Below, piece by piece: positions 1 to 15,043 of a stretch of DNA of 20,828 nucleotides. The notes beneath the pieces are model-generated. The model searched no databases. It was not told the DNA's origin and saw only the letters and a program-made list of their open reading frames with translations. This DNA comes from a virus (lineage: Duplodnaviria > Heunggongvirae > Uroviricota > Caudoviricetes): positions 1 through 20,828 of the IMG/VR virus record IMGVR_UViG_2531839668_000013; one strand, given 5' to 3'. The translations under genes and the position numbers were made by a program. Each line of letters begins with the position of its first letter. Within the stretch, counting starts at the first letter, position 1.

Positions 1-219
1 TCACATCCACATAATTTGCTGTCCTGACGGCAACGGGTGCGGCCTTACGGCATGGACTTCTCCCGGCTTCACGATGTATCGCTGTACCGACTCATAAGTG
101 ATGAACGTGGCGCTGCAATTCACGTTCTGGCACTGATGATAACGCTCTTTTGTCGTGTCAGTGATATAGCGACTTGTACGCGCATGTGCGGCATGCTGGC
201 ATAAAGGACAATGAAACAT
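1..219 (-). CDS. ogr: Ogr late-gene transcriptional activator (C4 zinc finger), 72 aa
   Basis: Translation from internal Met: MFHCPLCQHAAHARTSRYITDTTKERYHQCQNVNCSATF... matches P2 Ogr family; Cys-x2-Cys...Cys-x4-Cys; start trimmed from the 97-aa ORF (ATG at 217-219). Confidence 0.9.
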   Translation of the reverse strand: MFHCPLCQHAAHARTSRYITDTTKERYHQCQNVNCSATFITYESVQRYIVKPGEVHAVRPHPLPSGQQIMWM

Positions 220-300
220 CGCGAGCACCTCTTCCGGTTTTGTTGATAGTGCCATTTTAGTTAATTTATCTTTATAAAACAAACAGATAAACAAAAGACA

Positions 301-1464
301 TCACTCATAATCTTCTGTTTCGTACTCCACATCAGAAAGCCTGACCTCAAGCTCCAAGGACGTCGTGAAGCCGCTATTATTCAGAAAATGTGTCACCTTA
401 GTGATTGTCCAGTCCTGCTCGTCTATGACGCGCTTAAAGCCTGACACTCTGACCGGTGTTTCCGTGTAAATATCTGCACGACCAGTAGCCAGGATGATGG
501 AGAACTCCGCAACGCCCCGTTGCAGTTTGTCCCACTTCGCCTGAGCAGCACGCATGGCCTGTGCTTTCGTGGCATATACCGTGGTCAGGGCAAAAACGTT
601 GTCAGCCTCACCGGCCATGTATTCACCTTCGCGCGCTTCCGGTACTTTTGGCGCTTTCTTCTGCCTGACCGGTTTCGCTTTCGGGTGCTCCAGTGCGCGC
701 AGGTGTTTCTCTTTCTTTTTGCGTTTCAGTTTTACCTTCTGCTTTTGTGGCTTCGGGTCTTTGGTGTGAAGCCACTTTGCCGTTACGCCGGTATAGGCTC
801 CACGGTCAGCAATCGCAAAATGATGACGGTCACCGTCGCTGCGGGTGATGGTGACCTGCGGGATTTTTTTACCGCTGGCCGTCACCCCCTGCCCCGCTTT
901 GAGAAACAACAGTTTTCCCATTTTTACCGAGACCTCACCGCCGTTGCGTTCTGCAAGACGGGTCAGGAATTTCGCATCAGACTCCTGCGACTGGTCGATG
1001 TGCGGGATTTTAATTCCTGCCAGTGACGGCGCGACACTGGCTTCCAGCCTGTTACGGGAGGCTATCGCCTCAACAATCGCACCGAGCGTGGTGTCATGCC
1101 AGGAGCCTTCCCGGCGGGAATTGAGCGTCCCGCGAAAATCTGCACTCCGGGCGCGGATGGTAACCACATCCGGCGCGCCCCGGTGTTCAACCTCATCAAC
1201 GGTAAATTTCCCTTTGCATACCAGGGCAAAACCTTTCCAGCCGATATACACCGTCAGGACAGCGCCACGAACCGGCAGCCCGACCTGCCCGTCAGCATCG
1301 TTCAGTTCAATATCAAGCTGGTCAGCCTCAAAGCCCCTGTTATCCGTCAGGGTCATACTCATCAGACGGTCGCTGATATTGCCGGTAATATCCCTGCTGT
1401 CGAGCATCAGCATGTAATCCGGCGTCAGCGTACTGCCTGCATCAAATGTCAGCGCATCCAGCAT
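301..1464 (-). CDS. D: Tail protein D (late control gene D), 387 aa
   Basis: Full-length ORF of P2 gpD size, lysine-rich central linker, position between U and ogr; start overlaps U stop (ATGA). Confidence 0.85.
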   Translation of the reverse strand: MLDALTFDAGSTLTPDYMLMLDSRDITGNISDRLMSMTLTDNRGFEADQLDIELNDADGQVGLPVRGAVLTVYIGWKGFALVCKGKFTVDEVEHRGAPDVVTIRARSADFRGTLNSRREGSWHDTTLGAIVEAIASRNRLEASVAPSLAGIKIPHIDQSQESDAKFLTRLAERNGGEVSVKMGKLLFLKAGQGVTASGKKIPQVTITRSDGDRHHFAIADRGAYTGVTAKWLHTKDPKPQKQKVKLKRKKKEKHLRALEHPKAKPVRQKKAPKVPEAREGEYMAGEADNVFALTTVYATKAQAMRAAQAKWDKLQRGVAEFSIILATGRADIYTETPVRVSGFKRVIDEQDWTITKVTHFLNNSGFTTSLELEVRLSDVEYETEDYE

Positions 1465-1943
1465 TATCCCGCCCCCGTCATACCCGTGAATTTAGTCGCC
1501 AGACTGCCAGCCTTACCGATGAGCGATTCCGCCTGTTTACCGATATCGCCATAAAGCGCGGCCAGTGATTCATCAACGCGGGTGAGCGACAGCGTAAAAT
1601 CAATTTTTCGGGGTGTGCCGTCTGCAAAGAAAATACTCCCTGTTTCACTCACCCTGCTGATGACATACATGCCGTAAATCATGCCGGTGCCATCCAGCAA
1701 CGGCCACGCCCGACCTTCCTCTGCCATCAGCCTGAGCGTAGTCATCGTCAGCTTTCCGCCGGTCAGCTCGGGATAAAGCACACCGGCAAGCGTGATGTTT
1801 TCCTCGCCAACACCGAGAAACTGAAAGGCATCCCGTTTACCGATACGGGAATTTGACGGCCAGCGATAATCTGATTCACGCTGCATGGTCTGGTGTGGCA
1901 GCGTCTGGCGCATAAAAACAAACATACCTAACGCTAGCATCAT
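1464..1943 (-). CDS. U: Tail protein U, 159 aa
   Basis: Size and position (between T and D) as in P2; recalled similarity to gpU. Confidence 0.85.
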   Translation of the reverse strand: MMLALGMFVFMRQTLPHQTMQRESDYRWPSNSRIGKRDAFQFLGVGEENITLAGVLYPELTGGKLTMTTLRLMAEEGRAWPLLDGTGMIYGMYVISRVSETGSIFFADGTPRKIDFTLSLTRVDESLAALYGDIGKQAESLIGKAGSLATKFTGMTGAG

Positions 1944-1957
1944 TTTTCGTCACCTCC

Positions 1958-4396
1958 TTAACCGTCATGCATCATGCTGGCACGGGCGCGCGCACGTTTA
2001 TCCCGCTCGTATTTTTCGAGCGCATCCTGTAACTGGCGGTCAAGCTGTGTCCCCGGCGCAGTACTCCCCGTCAGGTTGATGTGATATTCGTTTTTACTCT
2101 GGTCTACATAAGAGCGGCCAGCCGGTGCCGTGACCGGCTGATAGCCTGCATAAGAGCTGGTCGCCGGAATATAACCACCGCTGCCATACGTGGCGGCTTG
2201 AGTTCTGGCGGCGGTCTGGTCAAGTGTGTCTGACTCTTTGTTGATAACACCGAGTTTTTCCAGTACCCAGTCAATACCGCTGCGCAGTTTGTTGAACGCA
2301 TTAAGCGGCAGCATCAGCGCGTCAGCCAGTGCCTGCCCGAACATGACCCCCGTGTCACGGCAACTGTTCAGGGTGTCCTGAGTGGCTTTGACCGGGGCAA
2401 TCAGGTTTTTAAACCACTGCCACGCGGCCTGTAACTTTTCACCCAGCCAGTCAAACACCGGCTTAAGTGGCGTGAACAGTTCCCCCACCGGCGCAAATGC
2501 CACTTTCAGCCCTTCCACCACACCGCCAAAGAATGCGCTGACAGGCTCCCAGTATTTACGGATAAGCAACGCCCCGGCGACAATTGCGGCCACCACGGCC
2601 ACAACAGGCCAGCTAATAGCCCCGATGGCGGTCATAACAGCACTGCCAACCGTCGTGAAGACTGCCCCCATTGCGCCTGCTGCCGCGATGATGACATTGA
2701 TGCCGGTGATAACCGGCCAGGCTACGAGGCCAATGGCACCGATGATGCCAGTCAGCGCCAGCGCGCCACCGGCAATGATGCCGATGGTTGACGCCAGTGA
2801 TTTGTTTTTCTGGATCCAGCCGTCGAGTTTTAACACATACTTTGTGGCCGTCTGCGTGAGCTTACGCAGCGCGCCTTCCTGCTGGTCAAACAGGTCAGTC
2901 CCCACTGCCTCATAAGCGGACTGAAACTCTTTAAAGTCACCGCCTAGGTTGTCCTGCATGATATTTACCAGCTCGGCGGTCTTCCCGTCTGAGGCTTTAA
3001 ACGCAGCGGTCAGTTTGTCCAGCTTTCCGGTTGAGGCGGCAGTCATCAGCACGGCGGCGGCTGAGCTGGCCTCCTCCCCGAAAATAGTTTTCATGTATTC
3101 AGCCTGCTGGGCAGTACCGAGCCGGTTTTTCTCAAAACTGGCCTGCATTTCTTTCAGAATGGTAAATATTGGCCGGGTGTTTCCCTTGCTGTCTGAGGTT
3201 TTCACTCCAAGCTCTTTGAGTGCATCCCATGCTTTTCCCGTCGGTGCCTGCAGGCGGCTTAACACGGCACGGCTTCCCGTCCCCGCCATTGAGCCTGTGA
3301 TTTTTGCATCATGCAGCGCCCCGACCATTGCGGCGGTTTCTTCAATGCTGACACCGGCATTTTTTGCCACAGGTGCGGCATAGATCAGCGCATCGCTCAT
3401 GCCGTCAAAATCGGCGGCGGTTTTGTTCATCGTCATGGAGAGAACATCCCCGATATGAGCGACCTTATCGTTTGAAAGCTGAAAGGCGGATTTCATCCCC
3501 ATCAGCAGGGCGGCGTTTTCTTCCATCGTGCGGCGGTTCGCCAGCGCCATGTTCAGCGTGACCGGCGTTGCCGCCTGAATGGCATCAACATCCCCACCGG
3601 CTTTCGCAATAATAATCTGCGCACCGGCCGCATCATCCGCCGAGGCTGCGGTATTGTCGCCGAGCTGGCGCGCCTGCTTGCGGAGTGCGGTCATTTCGGC
3701 GGAGTCTTTTGCCACTCCTAGCACGGCCTGCAATTCTGAGTTTTTCTGCGCAAACTCATAACCGGGCATCAGCAGCTTAACTCCGGCCATCGTTCCCGCC
3801 GCCGCAATCCCCACACCGGCAGCGCCCACTGAGGCCATATTTCCGGCCAGTTCCTTTCCGGCCTGATAACGCTGTTTTACTGCGTTAAGTTTTGCCTGTT
3901 GCGCACTGACACGCGCCAGTGCGTCGCGCTGACGATTAAGCTGTGCGGTGGTTTCACTGATACGGTTTTTCAGCCCCTGCTCATCATGTGCAAGATTGCG
4001 GGTATTAATTCCCACAGCGGCCAGTTCCCGCTGCTGGCGTTTAACGGAATCCGTCAGGCGGTTATATTTCGCCTGTAAGTCCTCCGCCGCTCGCTTTGCT
4101 GATTCCAGCACTTTCGCCTGAGCACGGGTCGGACGTTCGGTGTTTTTAAACTGTGTGGCAAGGGCTTCGGCCTCCTGCCGTGCCTTTTCAAGTGCATGAC
4201 CAGTCACGGCGAGCTGTGCACTGGTCTTGCGGAATCCCTCAATACGGGATGCGTGACCGTTCAGCTCGCGCAGTGATTTTTGTGTTTCCCGGATATCCCC
4301 CGACAGCGACTTACTCGCTGTGCGGATGGATTTAAACGGGCGGGATGCCTGGTCAACAGCCCTGAGCAATACCTGTAATTTTACATTGTTACTCAT
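1958..4396 (-). CDS. T: Tail tape measure protein T, 812 aa
   Basis: Long Ala/Gly-rich ORF with coiled-coil N-terminal region and hydrophobic glycine-zipper central segment; P2 gpT position and size. Confidence 0.9.
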   Translation of the reverse strand: MSNNVKLQVLLRAVDQASRPFKSIRTASKSLSGDIRETQKSLRELNGHASRIEGFRKTSAQLAVTGHALEKARQEAEALATQFKNTERPTRAQAKVLESAKRAAEDLQAKYNRLTDSVKRQQRELAAVGINTRNLAHDEQGLKNRISETTAQLNRQRDALARVSAQQAKLNAVKQRYQAGKELAGNMASVGAAGVGIAAAGTMAGVKLLMPGYEFAQKNSELQAVLGVAKDSAEMTALRKQARQLGDNTAASADDAAGAQIIIAKAGGDVDAIQAATPVTLNMALANRRTMEENAALLMGMKSAFQLSNDKVAHIGDVLSMTMNKTAADFDGMSDALIYAAPVAKNAGVSIEETAAMVGALHDAKITGSMAGTGSRAVLSRLQAPTGKAWDALKELGVKTSDSKGNTRPIFTILKEMQASFEKNRLGTAQQAEYMKTIFGEEASSAAAVLMTAASTGKLDKLTAAFKASDGKTAELVNIMQDNLGGDFKEFQSAYEAVGTDLFDQQEGALRKLTQTATKYVLKLDGWIQKNKSLASTIGIIAGGALALTGIIGAIGLVAWPVITGINVIIAAAGAMGAVFTTVGSAVMTAIGAISWPVVAVVAAIVAGALLIRKYWEPVSAFFGGVVEGLKVAFAPVGELFTPLKPVFDWLGEKLQAAWQWFKNLIAPVKATQDTLNSCRDTGVMFGQALADALMLPLNAFNKLRSGIDWVLEKLGVINKESDTLDQTAARTQAATYGSGGYIPATSSYAGYQPVTAPAGRSYVDQSKNEYHINLTGSTAPGTQLDRQLQDALEKYERDKRARARASMMHDG

Positions 4397-4741
4397 TCGT
4401 GTTTCCGCTTCGCCGGAGCGCCTTTTCGCGCCATGTGATGAGTTCGGTCAGGCTCATGGGATACAGTTCTGATGGCGGCCAGTGAAATATCACTGCCACA
4501 TCCGCCATCAGGTCATCGACCGAGAGATTTTTTGGAAACGTCACTGCACCGAGTTCGGCGACAAAAAACCGACCACCTTACCGGCCAGCGCCACAAGGTC
4601 AGGCAGTTCCAGCGCGGCGACTTCCTGCTCGGTCAGCATCGGTGCCGTCATGCGCGGCAGCACCTTAATCAGTGCATCGACTTCGGAGTTTGCAACCGCA
4701 GCCAGACTGACACCGCGTAGCGTCCCGGCATTGGGTTTCAT
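4389..4741 (-). CDS. E+E': E+E' tail assembly chaperone, produced by programmed -1 ribosomal frameshift at 4562-4568
   Basis: Hand translation of the -1 frame after the slip site gives an open extension (...VAELGAVTFPKNLSVDDLMADVAVIFHWPPSELYPMSLTELITWREKAARRSGNTNE*) ending at TAA 4389-4391, overlapping the T start, as in P2. Confidence 0.7.
4541..4741 (-). CDS. E: Tail assembly chaperone E (zero-frame product; probably N-terminally truncated by an upstream deletion junction)
   Basis: 66-aa ORF ending ...GFLSPNSVQ; slippery heptamer at its 3' end; open frame extends 22 codons upstream without an ATG. Confidence 0.7.
   Translation of the reverse strand: MKPNAGTLRGVSLAAVANSEVDALIKVLPRMTAPMLTEQEVAALELPDLVALAGKVVGFLSPNSVQ
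4562..4568 (-). other. Slippery heptamer T-TTT-TTG for the E/E' -1 frameshift
   Basis: Minus strand reads GGTTTTTTGTCG across codons G-F-L of E (plus strand caaaaaa). Confidence 0.75.
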
Positions 4742-5313
4742 CAGCGTGACCTGTTCGATAACCTGCTCACCACGTTTGACCGGATTTTGCCGCCGCTGTC
4801 GCCGGGGTGTTTATGGGTATGCAGTACTTTACCGTTTGATGAAAGTTCACCGCCGGTGTGTTCAATGTTGCCGCGCATCGTCCCGCCCTTCTGCACTTCC
4901 AGCGTGCCGGTAATCAGCCTGTTGGTGCAGACCACCTCCGGTGTGTCCAGGGTGACGCGGGTTGATGCTTTCACCATGACCACCGGCACCGTGGCAGTAA
5001 CAGAATCAGAAGCCGTCACGCTGGCCGTTTTAATTCCGCTTACCGTGAGTGCACTGGTTTCAGGTTCATACTCAATCACCGCCCCGTCAGGGAAACGGAT
5101 ATGCAGGGCATCCGCCGACGCCGACGGCGCGGGGTTATCGGCACTTAAATCGCCGTTCGTCTGCGGGTCACTGCCCGGCATCGGGCAAAGACTCACTTTC
5201 GGGCAGGCGTTGTGGACAATCACTGGCGTCGGTGCAGGCGGGGCGCTGGTGCAACCGGCGCACAGCATCAGGCAGGTCAGCGCCATACCAGCGGCGGAAA
5301 TCTTCGTTTTCAT
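4741..5313 (-). CDS. lysC: In-frame fusion ORF: Rz1-like o-spanin lipoprotein LysC N-terminus joined to a C-terminal fragment of baseplate spike V
   Basis: From internal Met: MKTKISAAGMALTCLMLCAGC (signal peptide plus lipobox) and Pro-rich segment, then ...SADALHIRFPDGAVIEYEPETSALTVSG...VLHTHKHPGDSGG (gpV-like with HxH apex motif); starts inside lysB in another frame; stop overlaps E ATG. Confidence 0.65.
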   Translation of the reverse strand: MKTKISAAGMALTCLMLCAGCTSAPPAPTPVIVHNACPKVSLCPMPGSDPQTNGDLSADNPAPSASADALHIRFPDGAVIEYEPETSALTVSGIKTASVTASDSVTATVPVVMVKASTRVTLDTPEVVCTNRLITGTLEVQKGGTMRGNIEHTGGELSSNGKVLHTHKHPGDSGGKIRSNVVSRLSNRSR

Positions 5314-5593
5314 TGAGTAATCTCGTGATGGTTTTCTCGCGCTGAGCTTCACGCTTCGCGGCGTTTTCCAGTTCCTGACGCAGTGCCACCTGCGCCAGCT
5401 CGTTTTTGTCTGCCCTGGTGAGCGCAACATGAAGCTGATTTTTCAGCATGGTGATGGTCGCCTGTTGCTCGCTGGCTACGTTGTTTGCCCTGTCCAGTGA
5501 GGTGCGCAGGCTGGCGTTTTTATGCTTCGCCAGAAACAGACCCGCCACCGCCAGCGATAACAACACGACCAGCACAATCATCAGCCTTGACAT
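5168..5593 (-). CDS. lysB: LysB, Rz-like i-spanin, 141 aa
   Basis: N-terminal transmembrane segment plus coiled-coil periplasmic domain; contains the lysC start in an alternate frame; P2 position. Confidence 0.85.
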   Translation of the reverse strand: MSRLMIVLVVLLSLAVAGLFLAKHKNASLRTSLDRANNVASEQQATITMLKNQLHVALTRADKNELAQVALRQELENAAKREAQREKTITRLLNENEDFRRWYGADLPDAVRRLHQRPACTDASDCPQRLPESESLPDAGQ

Positions 5594-6006
5594 GGTTCCC
5601 GCCCCTCAAAACGCTGACGGCAGGCCGTACGTATCAGCCGGAAGAACACCGATGCCACGAGATAAATCAGCGCGGTAAAAATCCACCCGGCAGCGACCAG
5701 CGAGATAAATGTCGCCACCATCACCACCAGAGCTACTGCCCGTCTGCGCCACGGCACCGGCTGCAAAAACAGCGACGTGACAATCTTCACGGCCAGCGAT
5801 TCCGGCGGCAGCTCCCGTCCGTAGCGTTCCAGTACATACTCAGTGGCATACACACCGACACCACCGGCAACCACACAGATAACCGTCGCCAGAATCGCCC
5901 AGGTGGCGACAAAACTGACGGCCACGCTCTGCGGGTAAATCAGGGACAGTGCCAGCATCAGCGCCAGCGACACATTCAGCATCAGTGAAAGGGATAATTT
6001 CTTCAT
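5581..6006 (-). CDS. lysA: LysA lysis-timing membrane protein, 141 aa
   Basis: Multi-pass hydrophobic protein immediately downstream of the endolysin, as in P2. Confidence 0.8.
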   Translation of the reverse strand: MKKLSLSLMLNVSLALMLALSLIYPQSVAVSFVATWAILATVICVVAGGVGVYATEYVLERYGRELPPESLAVKIVTSLFLQPVPWRRRAVALVVMVATFISLVAAGWIFTALIYLVASVFFRLIRTACRQRFEGREPCQG

Positions 6007-6020
6007 GGTGTTTACTCCGT

Positions 6021-6518
6021 TTAAGCCGGTACGCCGCCAGCGGTACGCCAGACGGTGACCAGTTTTTCCAGTGAATGCTCACGCTGACCGTAACCGGCAC
6101 CCGGCAGGGACGCCCAGATATTGCGACAGCGTGAAATGGCGCGCTCAATGCGTCCCGCCCGGATGTCATCCAGTGCACCGCGTTCGCGGATCAACTGAAT
6201 GGCGAGCCTGTCCTGTGACAACGGACTGAAATCCGGCAGGGCAAGCTGTTTGCGGTAGTGCGGCCAGAACAGGTAAAGCTGCTGATAGCGACCGGAGGCC
6301 GTGGATTTTTCACCGCGACGGTTAAACACCTTCGCCGGTCGGCCATGCGCAAACGGGTGGTCACTGTAGTCAGTGAAAATTTCCGGCTTCCCGTCCAGTC
6401 CGGTGACTATCACGTCATAGCCCCGGTTTTTCGTCAGCGGATGATTCGCCGTCCCTTCGGACACGGCCAGCATGTCGAGAAAGGCCGCGATATTCTGATG
6501 CGTGTTAATTACCGGCAT
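6021..6518 (-). CDS. K: Endolysin K (lysozyme-like), 165 aa
   Basis: Size, position between holin Y and lysA, recalled similarity to P2 gpK. Confidence 0.85.
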   Translation of the reverse strand: MPVINTHQNIAAFLDMLAVSEGTANHPLTKNRGYDVIVTGLDGKPEIFTDYSDHPFAHGRPAKVFNRRGEKSTASGRYQQLYLFWPHYRKQLALPDFSPLSQDRLAIQLIRERGALDDIRAGRIERAISRCRNIWASLPGAGYGQREHSLEKLVTVWRTAGGVPA

Positions 6519-6799
6519 TACTGTTTCCCCCTGCCCTTAAAACGGCGCTGAATGGCAATCTCAATCACCTGATAACCGGCGATACCCAGCATGGAGCCGA
6601 TACCGCACACCGCAGGCAGTGACAGGTCAGGAAACTGCACCAGAACAACACCGGCAACCATCGAGACAAAACCACCGAGCAACATGCGCCCGATAAACAG
6701 ACGCGGGGTGATGGGTTCACCACCGGCAAGCACCTTGCCGACAACAATCAGCACCCCAATCATGAAAAGCGACAGGACGCTTTTTTCTTCTGCTGTCAT
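6518..6799 (-). CDS. Y: Holin Y, 93 aa
   Basis: Small protein with hydrophobic transmembrane segments and basic C-terminus; stop overlaps K start. Confidence 0.85.
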   Translation of the reverse strand: MTAEEKSVLSLFMIGVLIVVGKVLAGGEPITPRLFIGRMLLGGFVSMVAGVVLVQFPDLSLPAVCGIGSMLGIAGYQVIEIAIQRRFKGRGKQ

Positions 6800-6802
6800 G
6801 CG

Positions 6803-7006
6803 TTACTCCCACAGATTGACAGTTTCAGCCACGGGCGCGGTCTGAACGTCGGGCAGTTCGACGGCGGTGCCGTGTGGCAGCACCGCACCCAGTTCAGCCA
6901 GTCCCGGATTTGCGGCGAGCACGGTCTCAACCACGCCCTCAGTGCGCCCGTAATACCGGACACAGATGGCGTCGAGCGTGTCGCCCTGTAGCGCAAAGGT
7001 CTTCAT
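6803..7006 (-). CDS. X: Tail protein X (LysM-like), 67 aa
   Basis: MKTFALQGDTLDAICVRYYGRTEGVV... P2 gpX-like; start trimmed to internal ATG 7004-7006, which overlaps the L stop. Confidence 0.8.
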   Translation of the reverse strand: MKTFALQGDTLDAICVRYYGRTEGVVETVLAANPGLAELGAVLPHGTAVELPDVQTAPVAETVNLWE

Positions 7007-7515
7007 CAGATTTGACTCACGATGCAGCGCGGCTTGTCCTGGATGCGCGCCACTGCCCAGCGCATATCCCGCCACAGCTCATCAATGGTGCTGTCAATGC
7101 TGTCGGCCTTCTTGTCGCCTTTCGCACTGGCATCCACGCCGCGATAACGCTCATAAAGCGATGCGGTTGCCATCGCACACACGGCGCGCTCGTAGTAAAA
7201 AACTTTGATGCTTTCACCGTCGATGTCGTCCGCCGGGACGTCCGCCAGACGCGTAAAACCGGCAGCAATTTTCTGTTCGCGGTACTCGTACAGCTCCGCA
7301 TTCGTCTCCGCCATGCCTGACTTGATGGCCTCACGCAGACGGGCGGGGGCGACGGTCTGCTCAAGGCGCATACGTTCCCGGACGCGCTTCGGGTCGATAT
7401 CGGGAAAAAAGAACGTGTTTTTAATCACCGGCTCGTCGCCTGCCGGTTGCGGGATGACCACCGTACCCTCACCGGACACGGGAGCCTCCTTTCGCGGAAT
7501 AATCAGCGTCATCAT
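7006..7515 (-). CDS. L: Head completion/stabilisation protein L, 169 aa
   Basis: MMTLIIPRKEAPVSGEG... P2 gpL-like; start trimmed from the 189-aa ORF. Confidence 0.8.
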   Translation of the reverse strand: MMTLIIPRKEAPVSGEGTVVIPQPAGDEPVIKNTFFFPDIDPKRVRERMRLEQTVAPARLREAIKSGMAETNAELYEYREQKIAAGFTRLADVPADDIDGESIKVFYYERAVCAMATASLYERYRGVDASAKGDKKADSIDSTIDELWRDMRWAVARIQDKPRCIVSQI

Positions 7516-7614
7516 GACTACCTCTGAAAAGTCGGGCGGTGGACGCCGGTGCAGTGTCAGGTGATTCACCCTCACTGACCGGCGTGCCGCCCTGGCGCGG
7601 GGCGCATTCGGTTG

Positions 7615-8358
7615 TTAACTGGCTTTCTTTTTCGGGCGTCCACGTTTTGCCGGTGTCACGCTCCGGGTCTTACGCGGGGCGCGGGTGGCCGCTTTGGGTT
7701 GCGGCTCCGGCTTCGGTTTCAGCTCCCGCTCCAGTCGTTCAATCTCTTTTTTGACGCCTGCCTGACAGTCGAGCTGTGTCGCACGTTGCAGGTGAGCCAG
7801 CGCACCGGCGGCATCACCACCGTCACGCAGAAACAGACCGGTGATTTTGTGCAGCTTTGCGCGCACTTCATCAGGCATGTCAGCAGCGGCAGTCAGTTCA
7901 AGGGTCTCCGTCAGCAGGCGGGTATCCACAGACTCACCGGCCGCGTGGGCGCGCATGGCCGCAAGCGCCACCTCCTCGGTGAACATGTACGGCGGGGTGC
8001 GGCGGTGTTTACCCGGCATGGTCAGACCGTATTTCAGGGCATAACGGGCAATCTCCAGCGCACCGGCAATATCGCCGGTATCCAGACGCCACAGCATGAC
8101 CGTCATCAGAATGTCATCCTGTGCGCCTTTGCCCTGCTCCAGCACGCCGTTCACCCACGGCAACCAGAACGGCAGCAGTTCGCGCTTTTTCGCGGCCTTC
8201 AGCTCTTTTGAATAAATCGCTTTCAGTGTGCGCTGGTCTGCGGCGAGCTTAACCAGCATCTGCTCATAGACAGTTGCATGTCGCAGCGGGGCGGCTTCCC
8301 GCTGCGCGGTCATCGCTGCCGAGACCCGCATCATGTGGCGCTGTGCGGGACTCGTCAT
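7615..8358 (-). CDS. M: Terminase endonuclease (small) subunit M, 247 aa
   Basis: P2 gpM size and position; basic C-terminal tail. Confidence 0.85.
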   Translation of the reverse strand: MTSPAQRHMMRVSAAMTAQREAAPLRHATVYEQMLVKLAADQRTLKAIYSKELKAAKKRELLPFWLPWVNGVLEQGKGAQDDILMTVMLWRLDTGDIAGALEIARYALKYGLTMPGKHRRTPPYMFTEEVALAAMRAHAAGESVDTRLLTETLELTAAADMPDEVRAKLHKITGLFLRDGGDAAGALAHLQRATQLDCQAGVKKEIERLERELKPKPEPQPKAATRAPRKTRSVTPAKRGRPKKKAS

Positions 8359-8361
8359 CGG

Positions 8362-9435
8362 TTACGCTCCCGGCTCTGCGGTCGCCTTAGCCGGTGTGGA
8401 GAAATCACCGACCTTAATTTTTTCCACCAGACAACCGGCGGCGTAGTCCTCCACCACGTAATCAATGTTCATTGACTCGTAGTTCTCCACGCGGTCGAGT
8501 TTCGGGTTTTCCTCAATCACGCGGCGATGGCTGTCATCCATGTAGTAGATGGACAGGTTTTCCAGCTTCGTGATGAGCATCGCATCCGCCGGGAAGTACG
8601 GGACGCGTACCGCTGGCAGGTTGCCGATGCGTTTCTGGCTGATGATGACGTCAGCGGCCAGCATTTCGCTGTTGTCCTGCTCCTTGTTGACGATGGGAAA
8701 ATACTTGTCCGCCAGTAGCTGACGCCCCACAATCACCACAAGGTCAGGGTCTTCCTGATACCACGGTTCAATCAGGTTGTTGGTCGCATCCATCACCAGT
8801 GCATCAAGGCTGGCATAATCACCGCCCTTACCCACGCGGATGACCTCAGAGGTGGTGTGCCCTTCCTCGTCAGTGACCTTGCTCATCACGCGCGCCGGGG
8901 CTTCATTGCGGTATTTCTGCAGCCAGCCGACCGCCACATCCTGCAGCATCGGATTGCTGCTGCGGTCAGAGGTTTCGGCACGCTTCACGCCGTTAAAACC
9001 GGCCATGATGAAATCAAGGGACTGACGTTTGATAATGGCGTTACGGACACGGAGCTGGAAATCCTGATAACGCGCCCACAGGTCAAGCGTTTTGTAGCGG
9101 ATATAAAAATCGAAGTTAATCTGGTCGCATTCGTACTTGTTTGACGCCAGCTTCGAGAAGTCCTTCGGCTGACGCTCGGTGCCACCGGCAGTGTCGGTGG
9201 TGCTGGCGATGGAGCCGGTGACACCGATACCAATTTTTTCCCCTTTCATTTCGCTGACCGGCACAATGTTGATGCGGGTCAGAAAGTCAGAAGACTCCTG
9301 CATGGTGTTCATCAGGGTCTGGGTGACCGACGGTTCAACGGTGAATTTTTTCGACACATCACCGGCGTCGATGCCGTTCAGTTCGGCAACACGGGACAGG
9401 TAGGCATTAAATTTAAAGCGGGTTTCCTGGCGCAT
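8362..9435 (-). CDS. N: Major capsid protein N, 357 aa
   Basis: P2 gpN size and position between O and M. Confidence 0.9.
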   Translation of the reverse strand: MRQETRFKFNAYLSRVAELNGIDAGDVSKKFTVEPSVTQTLMNTMQESSDFLTRINIVPVSEMKGEKIGIGVTGSIASTTDTAGGTERQPKDFSKLASNKYECDQINFDFYIRYKTLDLWARYQDFQLRVRNAIIKRQSLDFIMAGFNGVKRAETSDRSSNPMLQDVAVGWLQKYRNEAPARVMSKVTDEEGHTTSEVIRVGKGGDYASLDALVMDATNNLIEPWYQEDPDLVVIVGRQLLADKYFPIVNKEQDNSEMLAADVIISQKRIGNLPAVRVPYFPADAMLITKLENLSIYYMDDSHRRVIEENPKLDRVENYESMNIDYVVEDYAAGCLVEKIKVGDFSTPAKATAEPGA

Positions 9436-9493
9436 AGTTTTTCCTGAAATTAAGGGTTAATCGTGAAGGTTTTCCCGGACTGACTGACGCCGG

Positions 9494-10348
9494 TCAGCAG
9501 TTCGTCATCAGGGCGTCACCGCCACCGCCGGTGGCTTTACTGCGGCGCTGCTGGGTCAGACTTTCGGTGTGGTCGAGACTGTTTTTCAGGCGGGTGAATG
9601 CCTGACTGGTTTCATCCGCCCTGTCAGTCACATCCTGCTTAAGTGCGGAAAAGGCGGTTTCCATCTCAGCAAGGCGCTGCTCAGTGGCGCTCAGTTTTTC
9701 CTGCACATGCTCAGCGACAGCGGTCACCGCTTCATGCACGTCATTCAGACGGGCGTCATCGCTGGCCTGTTTGCGGCCAAAAATGGATTTCACCTTTTCG
9801 GTCAGGGCGGTGAACACGGTTTCAGGCAGGTCTTCAAATTCCAGCTCAACAGGCGTTGCCACTGAAATCAGGTTTTCAGGGCTTAATTTGAAGCGGTTCA
9901 GAGGGTTGTGTTTTGCCGTGCGGCAGAATTCCAGGTATTCCGTGCCGAGGCTTGCCGGGTCATCGGTGACGGCCAGACCCACCAGATAACATTTGCCGGT
10001 ATTGGCAAAGTTCGGCTGAATTTCCATTGAGGTATAGACCTTCTGCGCGGCCTTGTTCATCGCGATAAGGTCATCGGTCGGGGTGATTTTCGCAAACAGC
10101 GCCCATTTGCCTTTCAGCGCCGAATCATCGTCAATCTTTTCGGCCTTCAGTTCGACCACATCGCCATAACGCTTAAAAATACCGTCAGGCAGGATGCCGC
10201 GCAGATGTTCCAGGTTAATGCGGCAACCATAGACACGCGGGTCAAAGGTTTCGGCCATTTCCTGAATATCCTGCGCACTGATGACACGCCCGTCACAGGT
10301 GTCACCCTCAACGCCGATACGAAAGAATTTTGAGACTTTTTTTGCCAT
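9494..10348 (-). CDS. O: Capsid scaffolding protein O, 284 aa
   Basis: MAKKVSKFFRIGVEGDTCDG... P2 gpO-like; start trimmed to ATG at 10346-10348. Confidence 0.85.
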   Translation of the reverse strand: MAKKVSKFFRIGVEGDTCDGRVISAQDIQEMAETFDPRVYGCRINLEHLRGILPDGIFKRYGDVVELKAEKIDDDSALKGKWALFAKITPTDDLIAMNKAAQKVYTSMEIQPNFANTGKCYLVGLAVTDDPASLGTEYLEFCRTAKHNPLNRFKLSPENLISVATPVELEFEDLPETVFTALTEKVKSIFGRKQASDDARLNDVHEAVTAVAEHVQEKLSATEQRLAEMETAFSALKQDVTDRADETSQAFTRLKNSLDHTESLTQQRRSKATGGGGDALMTNC

Positions 10349-10521
10349 TGTCAGGAGTCCTGAATAGTGATTAGAGGAGTCACATGTCGGCATCAGTTTC
10401 CCGACGATGCGCATCCTCCGCCATCAGTCCCGGATGGCTTATCACTGACACAACAGCACCTTAGCGAATCGCGGGGCGCGACTCAGTAGCCTTGCCGTGT
10501 ATTCATCACGGCGAGGTATTC

Positions 10522-12294
10522 ATGACCATCACCACAGACACCACTCTTTTACACGACCCGCGTCGTCAGGCGGCGCTGCTGTACTGGCAGGGATTTTCCG
10601 TGCCGCAGATTGCCGCCATGTTGCAGATGAAACGCCCGACGGTGCAGAGCTGGAAACAGCGCGACGGCTGGGACAGCGTTGCCCCCATCAGCCGTGTCGA
10701 AATGAGTCTGGAAGCGCGGCTGACCCAGCTCATTATCAAACCGCAGAAAACCGGCGGTGACTTCAAGGAAATTGACCTGCTCGGACGCCAGATTGAACGA
10801 CTGGCACGGGTCAACCGTTACAGCCAGACCGGCAACGAGGCAGACCTTAATCCGAACGTCGCTAACCGCAACAAAGGCGGGCGGCGCAAACCGAAAAAGA
10901 ATTTTTTCAGTGACGAGGCCATCGAAAAGCTGGAGCAGATTTTCTTTGAGCAGTCTTTCGACTATCAGTTGCACTGGTATCGTGCCGGGCTTGAGCACCG
11001 CATCCGCGATATCCTGAAATCCCGCCAGATTGGCGCAACGTTTTATTTTTCCCGCGAGGCGCTGCTGCGCGCCCTGAAAACCGGCCATAACCAGATTTTT
11101 CTGTCGGCCAGTAAAACGCAGGCGTATGTGTTCCGTGAATACATCATCGCCTTTGCCCGGCTGGTTGACGTTGACCTGACCGGTGACCCGATTGTCCTGG
11201 GCAATAACGGCGCAAAACTGATTTTTCTCGGCACCAACTCCAACACCGCACAGAGCCATAACGGCGACCTGTACGTCGACGAGATTTTCTGGATCCCGAA
11301 TTTTCAGGTACTGCGTAAGGTGGCATCAGGTATGGCCTCACAGAGTCACCTGCGCTCGACCTATTTCTCCACCCCGTCCACGCTGGCGCACGACGCCTAC
11401 CCGTTCTGGTCGGGTGAACTGTTTAACCGGGGACGCGCCAGCGCCGCCGAACGCGTGGAAATCGACGTCAGTCATAACGCTCTTGCCGGTGGTCTTCTCT
11501 GTGCGGACGGCCAGTGGCGGCAGATTGTCACCATTGAGGACGCCCTGAAAGGCGGCTGCACATTGTTCGACATTGAGCAGCTCAAACGCGAAAACAGCGC
11601 CGACGATTTTAAAAACCTGTTCATGTGTGAATTTGTTGACGACAAGGCATCGGTGTTCCCGTTCGAGGAGCTGCAACGCTGCATGGTCGACACGCTGGAA
11701 GAATGGGAAGACTATGCGCCGTTTGCCGCGAATCCGTTCGGCTCCCGCCCGGTATGGATTGGTTACGACCCGTCACACCGTGGCGACAGCGCCGGATGCG
11801 TGGTACTGGCACCTCCGGTGGTGGCCGGTGGCAAATTCAGAATACTTGAGCGTCACCAGTGGAAAGGCATGGACTTTGCCACTCAGGCTGAATCTATCCG
11901 CAAACTCACCGAGAAATACAACGTCGAATACATCGGTATTGATGCCACCGGCCTCGGTGTCGGCGTGTTCCAGCTCGTGCGCTCGTTCTATCCCGCCGCA
12001 CGCGACATCCGCTACACGCCGGAAATGAAAACCGCAATGGTGCTCAAGGCAAAAGACGTTATCCGCCGTGGCTGTCTGGAATATGACGTCAGCGCCACCG
12101 ACATCACCAGCTCGTTTATGGCTATCCGCAAGACCATGACCAGCAGCGGACGCAGCGCCACCTATGAGGCCAGCCGCAGCGAGGAAGCCAGCCACGCAGA
12201 CCTCGCCTGGGCGACCATGCACGCCCTGTTAAATGAGCCACTCACCGCCGGTATCAGCACCCCGCTGACATCCACCATTCTGGAGTTTTACTGA
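10522..12294 (+). CDS. P: Terminase ATPase (large) subunit P, 590 aa
   Basis: MTITTDTTLLHDPRRQAALLYWQGFSVPQIAAM... P2 gpP-like; divergent from O; RBS gagg upstream of the trimmed start. Confidence 0.9.
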   Translation: MTITTDTTLLHDPRRQAALLYWQGFSVPQIAAMLQMKRPTVQSWKQRDGWDSVAPISRVEMSLEARLTQLIIKPQKTGGDFKEIDLLGRQIERLARVNRYSQTGNEADLNPNVANRNKGGRRKPKKNFFSDEAIEKLEQIFFEQSFDYQLHWYRAGLEHRIRDILKSRQIGATFYFSREALLRALKTGHNQIFLSASKTQAYVFREYIIAFARLVDVDLTGDPIVLGNNGAKLIFLGTNSNTAQSHNGDLYVDEIFWIPNFQVLRKVASGMASQSHLRSTYFSTPSTLAHDAYPFWSGELFNRGRASAAERVEIDVSHNALAGGLLCADGQWRQIVTIEDALKGGCTLFDIEQLKRENSADDFKNLFMCEFVDDKASVFPFEELQRCMVDTLEEWEDYAPFAANPFGSRPVWIGYDPSHRGDSAGCVVLAPPVVAGGKFRILERHQWKGMDFATQAESIRKLTEKYNVEYIGIDATGLGVGVFQLVRSFYPAARDIRYTPEMKTAMVLKAKDVIRRGCLEYDVSATDITSSFMAIRKTMTSSGRSATYEASRSEEASHADLAWATMHALLNEPLTAGISTPLTSTILEFY

Positions 12295-13328
12295 TGAGCA
12301 AGAAAAAAGGGAAAACACCGCAACCTGCGGCAAAAAAAATGACTGCCAGCGCCCCGAAAATGGAGGCATTCACCTTTGGCGAGCCGGTGCCGGTACTCGA
12401 CCGCCGTGACATTCTGGATTACGTCGAGTGCATCAGTAACGGCAGATGGTATGAGCCACCGGTCAGCTTTACCGGCCTGGCAAAAAGTCTGCGTGCTGCC
12501 GTGCATCACAGCTCGCCGATTTACGTCAAACGCAATATTCTGGCCTCGACATTTATCCCGCATCCGTGGCTTTCCCAGCAGGATTTCAGCCGCTTTGTGC
12601 TGGATTTTCTGGTGTTCGGTAATGCGTTTCTGGAAAAGCGTTACAGCACCACCGGTAAGGTCATCAGACTGGAAACCTCACCGGCAAAATATACCCGCCG
12701 TGGCGTGCAAGAGGATGTTTACTGGTGGGTGCCGTCCTTCAACGAGCCGACAGCCTTCGCGCCCGGCTCCGTGTTTCACCTGCTGGAGCCGGATATTAAT
12801 CAGGAGCTGTACGGCCTGCCGGAATATCTCAGCGCCCTTAATTCTGCCTGGCTGAATGAATCAGCCACACTGTTCCGCCGCAAGTATTACGAAAACGGCG
12901 CTCATGCCGGATACATCATGTACGTCACTGATGCCGTGCAGGATCGCAACGATATCGAAATGCTCCGCGAAAACATGGTGAAGTCGAAAGGCCGCAACAA
13001 CTTTAAAAATCTGTTTCTCTATGCCCCACAGGGGAAAGCCGACGGCATCAAAATTATCCCGCTCAGTGAAGTGGCAACGAAGGACGATTTTTTTAATATC
13101 AAAAAAGCCAGCGCCGCTGACCTGCTGGACGCGCACCGCATCCCCTTTCAGTTGATGGGCGGCAAGCCGGAGAACGTCGGGTCGCTGGGTGATATTGAGA
13201 AAGTGGCAAAGGTCTTTGTCCGCAATGAGCTTATCCCGTTACAGGACAGGATCCGCGAAATAAACGGCTGGCTCGGTCAGGAGGTCATCCGATTTAAAAA
13301 CTACTCACTGGACACTGACAACGGCTGA
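12294..13328 (+). CDS. Q: Portal (capsid vertex) protein Q, 344 aa
   Basis: P2 gpQ size and position, immediately upstream of cos; start overlaps P stop. Confidence 0.9.
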   Translation: MSKKKGKTPQPAAKKMTASAPKMEAFTFGEPVPVLDRRDILDYVECISNGRWYEPPVSFTGLAKSLRAAVHHSSPIYVKRNILASTFIPHPWLSQQDFSRFVLDFLVFGNAFLEKRYSTTGKVIRLETSPAKYTRRGVQEDVYWWVPSFNEPTAFAPGSVFHLLEPDINQELYGLPEYLSALNSAWLNESATLFRRKYYENGAHAGYIMYVTDAVQDRNDIEMLRENMVKSKGRNNFKNLFLYAPQGKADGIKIIPLSEVATKDDFFNIKKASAADLLDAHRIPFQLMGGKPENVGSLGDIEKVAKVFVRNELIPLQDRIREINGWLGQEVIRFKNYSLDTDNG

Positions 13329-13333
13329 ACATC

Positions 13334-13355
13334 GCCGCCTGCGGGCGGCTTTTTT
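13334..13355 (+). terminator. Intrinsic terminator after Q
   Basis: GCCGCC-tgcg-GGCGGC hairpin followed by TTTTTT. Confidence 0.7.
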
Positions 13356-13497
13356 ACACCCCGTCATCACCCCCTCACACGCTCACCACCGCACAAAACA
13401 CCCCGCAGACACACCAACGCCTCAACGGGCAGACTAAGCGCCGTCACGACGCGCTGAGACGCTGAAAAAATAAAATCCGCACCACCGCCAGCGCGCA

Positions 13498-13516
13498 GTG
13501 CTTTCCCCGCCTCGCC
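13498..13516. other. cos: cos cohesive-end site (P2 19-nt cos)
   Basis: gtgctttccccgcctcgcc is the exact reverse complement of the P2 cohesive end GGCGAGGCGGGGAAAGCAC. Confidence 0.85.
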
Positions 13517-13661
13517 CGCCCGCTTCATGGGGCGGTTTTAATGCAGTTGCAATACCGCTTTTGAGCCACGCCAGTCCTGGCGGACGCACAGCCAGAACAT
13601 GTAACTCCGGCACATGCAAAACCATGCACAGATAAAAACGGGGATATCACAGAAAAAGCAC

Positions 13662-13688
13662 AAAAAAACCGGCATTCATGGTGCCGGT
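13662..13688 (-). terminator. Intrinsic terminator for minus-strand transcripts leaving the cargo island
   Basis: ACCGGCA-ttcatgg-TGCCGGT stem; the minus strand reads the hairpin followed by a T-run. Confidence 0.6.
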
Positions 13689-13827
13689 TCTGATCAATTT
13701 TTATAGTTGTCACTGGCCGCGCAATGTACCAATCACACTGTTGAGGCACGTACTGACAACAATTAGCAGAAAAATCGTTGTCCACGGACTTTCATAAATG
13801 TGAGATAACATCTTGATATAGATCATT

Positions 13828-14022
13828 TTATTTACTCATTCTGATGTGATTTAACAGGTATTTTATAACGACCATAAGCTCATCTTTACTGGCTTGTTCA
13901 ACCATTTTTTCAGTGTAACTGTCCACCTCGCGTGAGCTCAGGTCGTTATTTGAGGCCATTACAGTTAGCCTCTTTGCCCAGTCGGCATAAGGGTCTTTAA
14001 TTGATGAAAGGGAACTATGCAT
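13828..14022 (-). CDS. Hypothetical small protein (65 aa from internal Met; ORF extends to 14109)
   Basis: ORF in AT-rich cargo DNA with a downstream minus-strand terminator; no recognisable family; weak RBS. Confidence 0.4.
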   Translation of the reverse strand: MHSSLSSIKDPYADWAKRLTVMASNNDLSSREVDSYTEKMVEQASKDELMVVIKYLLNHIRMSK

Positions 14023-14452
14023 GTCCAAAAATCTCGAATTATTCAACCAACAGACGGCAGAAATCTTTGCGGTGCTATGGGATAACTTTCCTGTACCACA
14101 AGTCATCACCTACAAAAAATTTAACGCCGCGTTACCTGATGACTACTTTGACCAACTTAACTCACCAGAAATGAAAGCACTGAATCAGTTGCGTAGTGTG
14201 GTTGATGGCACATTCACTTTCTTAAGCGAAAACGGCTATATTCTGTACGGAACAGACCATCAGACCGGTTTTCATGATGTGCGACTGACCGAGAAAGCAC
14301 TCGCGGTGCTCAACAAAAAACCCGAAGCACTTGGCGGTAATGAAACGATGGGAGATAAGATTATCAGCGCAGTGAAGGACGGGACACCTGGTGTTATTGC
14401 CGGTGCAGTAACAAACCTGCTTACCCTCGGTGTCAATCTGATAACTAGCTAA
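14021..14452 (+). CDS. Hypothetical protein, 143 aa, with C-terminal Gly/Ala-rich hydrophobic segment
   Basis: Long ORF in AT-rich DNA; AGGGA-like RBS about 8 nt upstream; followed by terminator-like hairpin; no recognised family. Confidence 0.6.
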   Translation: MSKNLELFNQQTAEIFAVLWDNFPVPQVITYKKFNAALPDDYFDQLNSPEMKALNQLRSVVDGTFTFLSENGYILYGTDHQTGFHDVRLTEKALAVLNKKPEALGGNETMGDKIISAVKDGTPGVIAGAVTNLLTLGVNLITS

Positions 14453-14465
14453 CGCCTTACTTCAC

Positions 14466-14510
14466 CTCCGCCAGCACTGAAAGCAAGTTTCAGCACCGGC
14501 GGAGTTTCTT
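14466..14510 (+). terminator. Terminator-like compound hairpin after the 143-aa gene
   Basis: CTCCGCC...GGCGGAG outer stem with inner CTGAAA/TTTCAG stem, followed by TTTCTT. Confidence 0.5.
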
Positions 14511-14560
14511 AAATTTGTTCCATCTCAAACATTGAGATATCTTTTTCATTTCACCCGGAA

Positions 14561-14998
14561 TTACTTAATTACATTAAAGGTGAATCCCTTTACCCCTCGA
14601 CCAAAAACAGCCCCTCCATCCGATATATAAACAGAATTATCACAAAGACATATATCACCAAATGAATACTTTCCAAGCAAGTCTTTATAAATAGAAATAA
14701 GCTCTTGAGCCACATAAGGAATCATTAATTTTGATAACCCTTGTCCCCGCTCACTTTGCTTAACCCAAACATAATCTATTTGATATATTACAGCGTCCTC
14801 TGTAGATTCAATGATGAATGAACAAAAACCTATTTTCTCATTATCGTCATTCACCACTGCCACCACACTCACAAAATTACTGCAAAGTGCCTGATTATAC
14901 TTCTCCTCTGCTACGCTACAACAATCTTCAAAATCCCCGACTCCCAAAGAGATATCGGTGATAACATTCCCTTTCTTATCAATGCAAACTCTTACCAT
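14561..14998 (-). CDS. GNAT-family N-acetyltransferase-like protein, 145 aa
   Basis: Motif VWVKQSERGQGLSKLM resembles the GNAT acetyl-CoA binding motif (R-x-x-G-x-G) preceded by beta-strand-like segments; AGGT RBS; 45 bp downstream of A on the same strand. Confidence 0.55.
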   Translation of the reverse strand: MVRVCIDKKGNVITDISLGVGDFEDCCSVAEEKYNQALCSNFVSVVAVVNDDNEKIGFCSFIIESTEDAVIYQIDYVWVKQSERGQGLSKLMIPYVAQELISIYKDLLGKYSFGDICLCDNSVYISDGGAVFGRGVKGFTFNVIK

Positions 14999-15043
14999 AT
15001 ATAATTACCTGGCGTTATCTTGACACATTATTTATCAATAAGT

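Follow-up and report, generated by a model that had tools for sequence, protein, structure and literature searches.

A lysC-gene V chimeric open reading frame in a tail-less P2-like prophage of Escherichia coli, the probable by-product of two deletions

The DNA analysed here, referred to below as the window, is a stretch of 20,828 nucleotides of a viral record (IMGVR_UViG_2531839668_000013). It corresponds to a P2-like (Peduovirus) prophage, with the late genes on the minus strand and in the P2 order. This prophage keeps the integrase, the early genes, gene A, the portal, terminase, scaffold and capsid genes and M, L and X, and also Y, K, lysA, lysB, a remnant of E, T, U, D and ogr. The window has no R, S, W, J, I, FI or FII and none of the fibre genes, and its copies of V and E are truncated. 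The lysis and tail region contains the following features:

6799..6518, minus strand: holin gene Y
6518..6021, minus strand: endolysin gene K
6006..5581, minus strand: lysA
5168..5593, minus strand: lysB (i-spanin), intact, 141 aa, its stop codon 28 nt upstream of junction 1
4741..5313, minus strand: chimeric open reading frame, 190 aa plus stop, LysC(1-59)-gpV(90-206)-14 aa of out-of-frame E
5251..5313, minus strand: LysC signal peptide and lipobox, MKTKISAAGMALTCLMLCAG followed by the lipidated Cys21 (5253-5251), with Thr at +2
5137..5313, minus strand: lysC-derived part, codons 1-59, in the +1 frame and starting inside lysB
5136..5140: junction 1 (lysC/V), 5-nt microhomology, TATCG on the plus strand (CGATA in gene orientation)
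4786..5136, minus strand: gene V fragment, codons 90-206 (linker, intertwined beta-helix and most of the Apex domain)
4785..4786: junction 2 (V/E), 2-nt microhomology, TT on the plus strand
4741..4785, minus strand: out-of-frame gene E tail, the last 14 codons of the chimera and its stop, IRSNVVSRLSNRSR
4541..4786, minus strand: remnant of gene E (tail chaperone), codons 11-91, its own start and first 10 codons deleted, Pfam Phage_TAC_7
1958..4396, minus strand: tape-measure gene T, 812 aa

The original prediction had placed at positions 4741-5313 a fusion of the o-spanin LysC with a foreign C-terminal extension of more than 100 residues. Six-frame listing of open reading frames, with translation, located it exactly there: it runs on the minus strand from an ATG at 5313-5311 to a TGA at 4743-4741, comprises 190 codons without internal stop and carries both protein families in one polypeptide. 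The extension measures 131 residues. A longer version of 229 codons could start from an upstream ATG at 5430; the counterpart of the P2 lysC start is position 5313, not this ATG.

Residues 1-59 of the chimera are identical to those of the 96-aa LysC of the closest relative, a non-deleted P2-like prophage of E. coli O157:H16 strain 98-3133 (NZ_CP051001.1) that we used as the reference for the deletions, and 54 of the 59 are shared with P2 LysC. P2-type LysC proteins have been described as signal-peptidase-II lipoproteins (PMC3091744). As judged by pattern inspection only, the chimera starts like the intact 98-3133 LysC, with MKTKISAAGMALTCLMLCAG followed by C-TS, and so includes the lipobox and the outer-membrane sorting residue at +2. 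The next 117 residues (60-176) are all identical to residues 90-206 of the 98-3133 gpV, and at the DNA level the V-derived stretch agrees with gene V of this relative at all of 353 bp (100%), so the resemblance is not due to chance. The spike protein gpV begins with an OB-fold at its N-terminus, continues as an intertwined beta-helix and ends in an Apex domain (residues 191-211), in which His197 and His199 cage an Fe ion, and its fragment 97-211 folds and readily crystallises (bioRxiv 10.1101/2023.02.25.529910). Both histidines are kept in the chimera (H167 and H169, positions 4815-4807), and the final five residues of gpV, which belong to the Apex domain, are swapped for another sequence. This sequence, residues 177-190 (IRSNVVSRLSNRSR), is gene E read in the wrong frame; the TGA that ends it shares bases with the internal Met26 codon of E (ATGA).

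Profile searches gave the same picture. In Pfam, the single polypeptide matched LysC (PF23793, profile positions 1-47 of 69) and Phage_spike (PF18715, 1-53 of 53, E 2e-28), and no Pfam match was obtained for the Phage_base_V OB-fold (PF04717). With NCBIfam, P2_Rz1 (NF038368, profile positions 2-57 of 85) and phage_P2_V (TIGR01644, 78-185 of 192) were detected; P2_Rz1 scored 80 bits over positions 2-57 on the chimera and 128 bits over positions 2-85 on the intact LysC. The LysC family profiles thus cover the chimera over their N-terminal two thirds only. Chains of P2 gpV in the PDB (3QR8, 3AQJ, 3QR7) matched its residues 54-177 with E values from 4e-71 to 8e-66. Identity and profiles together bear out the description of an Rz1-type lipoprotein N-terminus joined in frame to a gpV spike fragment with its HxH motif.

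P2-family LysC proteins do not naturally share the C-terminus of the chimera, since the P2 and 98-3133 proteins are both 96 aa long and end in ...QPAQGAD; neither junction contains a stop codon. The picture of a LysC carrying a foreign extension needs two amendments. The start is indeed that of LysC and is followed by a piece of gpV, but LysC is not whole, its C-terminal 37 of 96 residues being gone. Likewise, the added residues are not LysC, but they are merely what remained after two deletions, and the final 14 are gene E out of frame.

In several respects the chimera can still be aligned with P2 LysC, the partner of the i-spanin LysB (NF038368, PF23793). Both have the signal peptide, lipobox Cys21 and proline-rich region, both start at the same point in the +1 frame inside lysB (an architecture described in PMC3091744 and PMC6139136), and both occupy the same place in the lysis cassette, Y-K-lysA-lysB-lysC. 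In contrast, the full-length LysC family profile, including its C-terminal third, is not matched by the chimera, the mature product would be 169 aa instead of 76 aa, and R, the normal downstream neighbour into which P2 lysC runs, has been deleted beside it.

Comparison of the window with P2 and its relatives by BLAST revealed a collinear arrangement, in three blocks separated by two gaps. Against the 98-3133 prophage, the blocks were:

5133-17100: 1 mismatch in 11,968 bp
4787-5135 (V block): 0 mismatches (353-bp V block)
919-4786: 1 mismatch in 3,868 bp

The retained flanks are therefore 99.97-99.99% identical to the 98-3133 prophage. The gene content of both gaps was read from the P2 and 98-3133 annotations. 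At junction 1, 1,322 bp are lost relative to 98-3133, corresponding to the lysC 3' end, R, S and V codons 1-88. At junction 2 the loss is of 7,138 bp and comprises the end of V (codons 207-211), the genes W, J and I, the tail-fibre/invertase block, the sheath gene FI, the tube gene FII and the first 10 codons of E. Comparison of the two junctions at the nucleotide level revealed no foreign or inserted DNA at either of them. The join between lysC codon 59 and V codon 90 is in frame, which has a one-in-three chance of occurring and is weak evidence either way, and the join between V codon 206 and E codon 11 is out of frame.

Both the window prophage and the 98-3133 prophage adjoin ogr/fieF-pfkA-sbp-cdh-tpiA. 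This shared chromosomal flank indicates that the window holds the same prophage insertion after deletions that took place in situ, and the near-identity of the flanks to an intact relative indicates that these deletions are very recent, leaving no time for selection to show. All three marks of a deletion derivative were thus found: collinear near-identity at the same site, junctions with short microhomology that lack an intervening mobile element or recombination site, and loss of essential virion genes. We consider it about 85% probable that the chimeric ORF arose by accident when illegitimate recombination deleted two segments of a resident P2-like (Peduovirus) E. coli prophage. One deletion would have fused lysC codon 59 to V codon 90, in frame by chance. 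A second would have fused V codon 206 to E codon 11, so that translation would continue for 14 codons up to the TGA. Microhomologies of 5 nt and 2 nt, as found at the junctions, are typical of illegitimate recombination. The original prediction had overlooked this cause and setting: the fusion is one of two junctions in a tail-less, defective prophage.

Recombination at pseudo-sites by a Hin/Cin-type invertase was also considered, such an invertase being encoded in the block of the relative that is deleted here. At hix, cix and gix sites, crossover is expected at the central dinucleotide between AACC/GGTT-like half sites. Inspection showed a crossover at AA/TCCGG for junction 2 and an overlap of 5 nt for junction 1, and this candidate was rejected.

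Contig AFAE02000014.1 (E. coli assembly GCA_000194645.2) matches the window with 100% identity over 15,286 bp. No instance of the contiguous arrangement turned up among 5,426 complete E. coli genomes, the k-mers of both junctions were absent from GTDB representative genomes and from IMG/VR, and that of junction 1 was absent from JGI metagenomes. In a search of 5.8 billion proteins, a single cluster spanned both halves of the chimera, and it derived from the same sequence. The deletion event is therefore strain-specific, its junction being present in a single assembly among the data searched. An alternative reading is an assembly artefact, in which the real strain would have an intact prophage and the double junction would have arisen in the draft genome. 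The sole source is indeed a draft assembly (AFAE02000014.1), from which both RefSeq records of the protein may stem. However, assemblers produce false joins at long repeats, whereas the overlaps here are only 5 nt and 2 nt; the 121,772-bp contig continues through the prophage into chromosomal genes; two separate false joins plus the loss of 8.5 kb would be required; and comparable deletion scars occur in independent assemblies (PSJ-12 and SRR7411343). We accordingly regard an artefact as extremely unlikely.

Together, the two deletions removed about 8.5 kb of tail genes, the H/G region among them. With the tail-completion, baseplate, fibre, sheath and tube genes gone, the prophage cannot yield infectious particles on its own. 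T, followed by U and D, now lies directly downstream of the O-operon remnant, and the longest ATG-initiated ORF that remains in the gene E remnant spans 4741..4541 (66 aa). The chimera reflects the ordinary decay of a prophage rather than a novel type of lysis protein, and we found no evidence of selection or function.

We then considered how the product might be expressed. By reference to the P2 annotation, the deleted intervals contain the lysC attenuator, the terminator of the O operon and both the P_V and the P_F promoter. A terminator scan of positions 4000-6200 revealed no convincing terminator inside the chimeric ORF, and a match at 4589-4567 corresponds to the E/E' slippery TTTTTTG region. 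The chimeric ORF appears to have kept its place behind lysB in the late O operon, which depends on Ogr. The late operon of P2 is silent in the lysogen. Since the attenuator, terminator and both promoters are deleted, the chimera should be transcribed only once the late programme is switched on, when a transcript from P_O would read through lysB, the chimera, the E remnant, T, U and D. Once translated, the chimera would probably be exported, lipidated at Cys21 and, with Thr at +2, sorted to the outer membrane, and it would place a gpV beta-helix, possibly trimeric, in the periplasm. A stable product is plausible, as the part of V that is retained spans a domain able to fold on its own.

Could such a product still act as an o-spanin, its lipid anchor and proline-rich proximal LysC part pairing with LysB and the V fragment being a tolerated passenger? 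The signal peptide, the lipobox, Cys37 and Cys43 and the proline-rich stretch are all intact, as is lysB, which still overlaps the chimeric ORF, and the final residues of lambda Rz1 are dispensable (PMC5295617). However, LysC residues 60-96 are missing from the chimera (37 of 76 mature residues, profile positions 58-85), a loss that far exceeds the extreme C-terminus and that takes with it Cys70 and Cys80, two of the four periplasmic cysteines. Nonsense mutations in lambda Rz1 prevent lysis when they lie no further along than codon 46 of 60 (PMC5295617), so that proteins truncated at or before this codon are lysis-defective, and the Rz-Rz1 complex is formed via the C-terminal regions (PMC6139136); the comparison is with a protein of a different family and of embedded architecture. 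Moreover, a trimerising beta-helix of about 120 residues would be expected to clash, sterically and stoichiometrically, with a dimeric complex that spans the periplasm, and a prophage from which no virions come has nothing to maintain spanin function. Because the distal half of mature LysC is missing, and because a bulky trimeric domain ill-suited to the dimeric spanin design takes its place, the chimera is probably not a working o-spanin, and a retained role of this kind seems to us distinctly unlikely.

The gpV part was compared in the same way with known proteins. By its sequence, the chimera shares with the P2 gpV spike the triple-stranded Phage_spike beta-helix and the HxH Fe site; the N-terminal OB-fold, which docks the spike onto the tube/baseplate, is missing. 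In P2, the gene for gpV comes first in the V-W-J-I baseplate operon, whereas the window lacks W, J, I and the P_V region. Unlike gpV, the fragment also stands behind an export signal and would reach the periplasm from inside the cell. Unimolecular spanins of the T1 gp11 type likewise combine an N-terminal lipoprotein signal with a long, beta-rich periplasmic segment. This class was rejected: the chimera has no C-terminal transmembrane domain, its tail KIRSNVVSRLSNRSR being polar and basic, and its C-terminal 30 residues (...HTHKHPGDSGGKIRSNVVSRLSNRSR) contain no hydrophobic stretch.

Other scars were encountered in P2-like prophages. The prophage of E. coli PSJ-12 contains a J'-'E deletion fusion. 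In the Logan assembly SRR7411343, K(1-149) is fused to V(~90-211), and after this fusion W codons 1-29 run into mid-T (W'-'T); it is a second double deletion sparing only the C-terminal part of V. In Logan SRR10434783, the antisense 3' end of terminase gene P is joined to V at the same point. The two Logan cases were taken from several chimeric or internally deleted V proteins among the top matches of the protein search. The independent deletion fusions of PSJ-12 and SRR7411343 show that such scars are a recurrent form of decay.

The breaks on the V side in the window, SRR7411343 and SRR10434783 fall at positions 11353-11363 of the 98-3133 reference, within the same ~10 nt. The two Logan sequences are 95-98% identical to this reference, compared with 99.97-99.99% for the window, which makes three independent lineages. 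One reading is that the C-terminal part of V is kept, or V broken at codon ~88-90, more often than expected by chance. It might reflect a site-specific hot spot in gene V, or an advantage conferred by a spike domain that is free or anchored in the envelope, for example through interference with incoming contractile-tail phages. However, the coincidence is partly one of ascertainment, because a protein query that holds V from residue 90 ranks such fragments highest; it favours proteins that hold all of this part and finds open frames only. Folding of 101 nt around the recurrent breakpoint as DNA gave an unremarkable result (z = -0.49), and a hairpin was rejected. The 37-mer just 3' of the breakpoint was preceded by the native upstream sequence in 108 of 108 metagenome contigs, and the counts for complete E. 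coli genomes were 1,806 places with the 3' part of V against 1,790 with its 5' part. These counts indicate that scars at this point are rare, and we judge a real excess of such breaks, or of retained V ends, highly unlikely. The three-fold coincidence is minor; pure chance offers no comfortable explanation for it.

The same observations bear on the possibility that the chimera has been selected for a new function, as a periplasmic spike domain that is anchored in the outer membrane, bears an Fe-binding HxH apex and might interfere, for instance, with incoming P2-like phages or with envelope integrity. The beta-helix folds independently and is retained with an Apex that includes His197 and His199, the V fragment continues the reading frame of a signal for export and lipidation, and the two further independent remnants keep the C-terminal part of V from the same ~10 nt with open frames. 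Open frames are nevertheless expected in remnants found by protein search, the 3' part of V is ahead of the 5' part by only 16 places in ~1,800 in complete E. coli genomes, and V next to the breakpoint has its native upstream sequence at 108 of 108 metagenome occurrences. The junction itself is known from one assembly only; flanks 99.97-99.99% identical to those of an intact relative leave no time for a trace of selection; the ORF would lie in a late operon silent in the lysogen; and the last five Apex residues of V have given way to a meaningless out-of-frame C-terminus. Hardly any credence can thus be given to a selected function, and accidental formation by two deletions stays by far the preferred reading.

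The ogr-D remnant of E. coli K-12 is a defective P2-like prophage formed by deletion. Like this remnant and those of PSJ-12 and SRR7411343, the window has lost late-gene blocks at short homology and has chimeric ORFs at the scars; the end points of the other remnants differ from those of the window. Here the head, terminase, replication and integration genes all remain, together with the lysis genes except lysC, which places the decay at an early stage. The chimera works like nothing established, and it belongs with the deletion derivatives of resident P2-like prophages.

The window thus provides a clean and datable case of early prophage decay, with an intact sister at the same locus, about 1 difference per 10 kb and junctions resolved to the nucleotide. 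If expressed and stable, the chimera would be a natural test of how far an o-spanin tolerates a large C-terminal replacement, and nothing suggests that the cell makes use of it. A prophage predictor would rate this tail-less 21-kb element as a fairly complete P2-like phage. Finally, look-ups of exact proteins gave no match for the 190-aa or the 229-aa version, whereas homology search identified RefSeq versions that use internal starts. Two records, identical to the chimera including its out-of-frame tail, were identified:

WP_248698635.1: 175 aa, called from Met16
WP_349145916.1: 181 aa, called from Met10

Both are titled "Rz1-like lysis system protein LysC [Escherichia coli]", so that RefSeq already lists the chimera under a misleading plain LysC name, from internal starts that cut into the signal peptide.

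The V break lies at codons ~88-90 and falls within the same ~10 nt in the window and in two unrelated P2-like prophage remnants, each carried on a Logan contig.

L006:6001-6900, V scar in Logan contig SRR7411343_1609, corresponding to window ~5130-5140
L007:1986-2587, V scar in Logan contig SRR10434783_20, corresponding to window ~5130-5140

On SRR7411343_1609 the K endolysin(1-149) is fused to the V fragment (V') and a W(1-29)-T' junction follows, while on SRR10434783_20 V' is joined to the antisense 3' end of the terminase gene P. Internal deletions, ending at codons ~90 and ~97, are present in two V proteins matched by the chimera in the homology search (P0014 and P0032). The break point shared by the window, L006 and L007 may mark a hot spot for breakage, or else may be a product of ascertainment.

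Three other matches (P0002, P0008 and P0012) are gpV proteins in large clusters (52 and 289 members) with frameshifted or alternative N-termini, the change lying around codons 55-88, close to CCGGGG and TTCCGG runs. These clusters may represent V pseudogenes, or may stem from homopolymer errors in the sequencing of deposited E. coli genomes.

The chimera (window 4741-5313, minus strand) carries the plain RefSeq/PGAP name 'Rz1-like lysis system protein LysC'. It is called from Met16 in WP_248698635.1 (175 aa) and from Met10 in WP_349145916.1 (181 aa), and each of these starts removes part of the signal peptide; the start equivalent to that of P2 is MKTK at 5313. At its 3' end, the chimera runs into what is left of gene E.

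window 4541-4786, minus strand, gene E remnant without its start codon and codons 1-10

The TGA of the chimera overlaps the internal Met26 codon of E (ATGA), an arrangement by which coupled re-initiation might yield a 66-aa E fragment. At this remnant a 72-aa ORF is predicted by the gene caller behind L004, and the E/E' slippery site TTTTTTG (~4567-4573 of the window) is intact.

The intact prophage of E. coli O157:H16 98-3133 (L005) carries a region that is deleted from the window.

L005:5736-8341, serine-recombinase and tail-fibre region

Here an invertase-type serine-recombinase gene is present together with tail-fibre and fibre-assembly gene segments in opposite orientations, so that, compared with P2, a switchable fibre cassette occupies the place of Z/fun. 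This cassette falls wholly within the 7,138-bp deletion of the window.

The window and the 98-3133 prophage also have in common a 143-aa ORF and a 145-aa GNAT-type acetyltransferase (window 14021-14998, with the portal gene on one side and replication gene A on the other), at the site that holds non-essential cargo (tin/old) in P2. No family match was found for the 143-aa ORF.

Another independent deletion was observed in a P2-like prophage of E. coli PSJ-12 (NZ_AP027622.1; L003:3242-4165), in which a J-like 'baseplate assembly protein' ORF directly adjoins the GpE-family (E') gene, I, H, G, FI and FII being absent between them. This element also has a shortened tail protein X and a fragmentary terminase gene.
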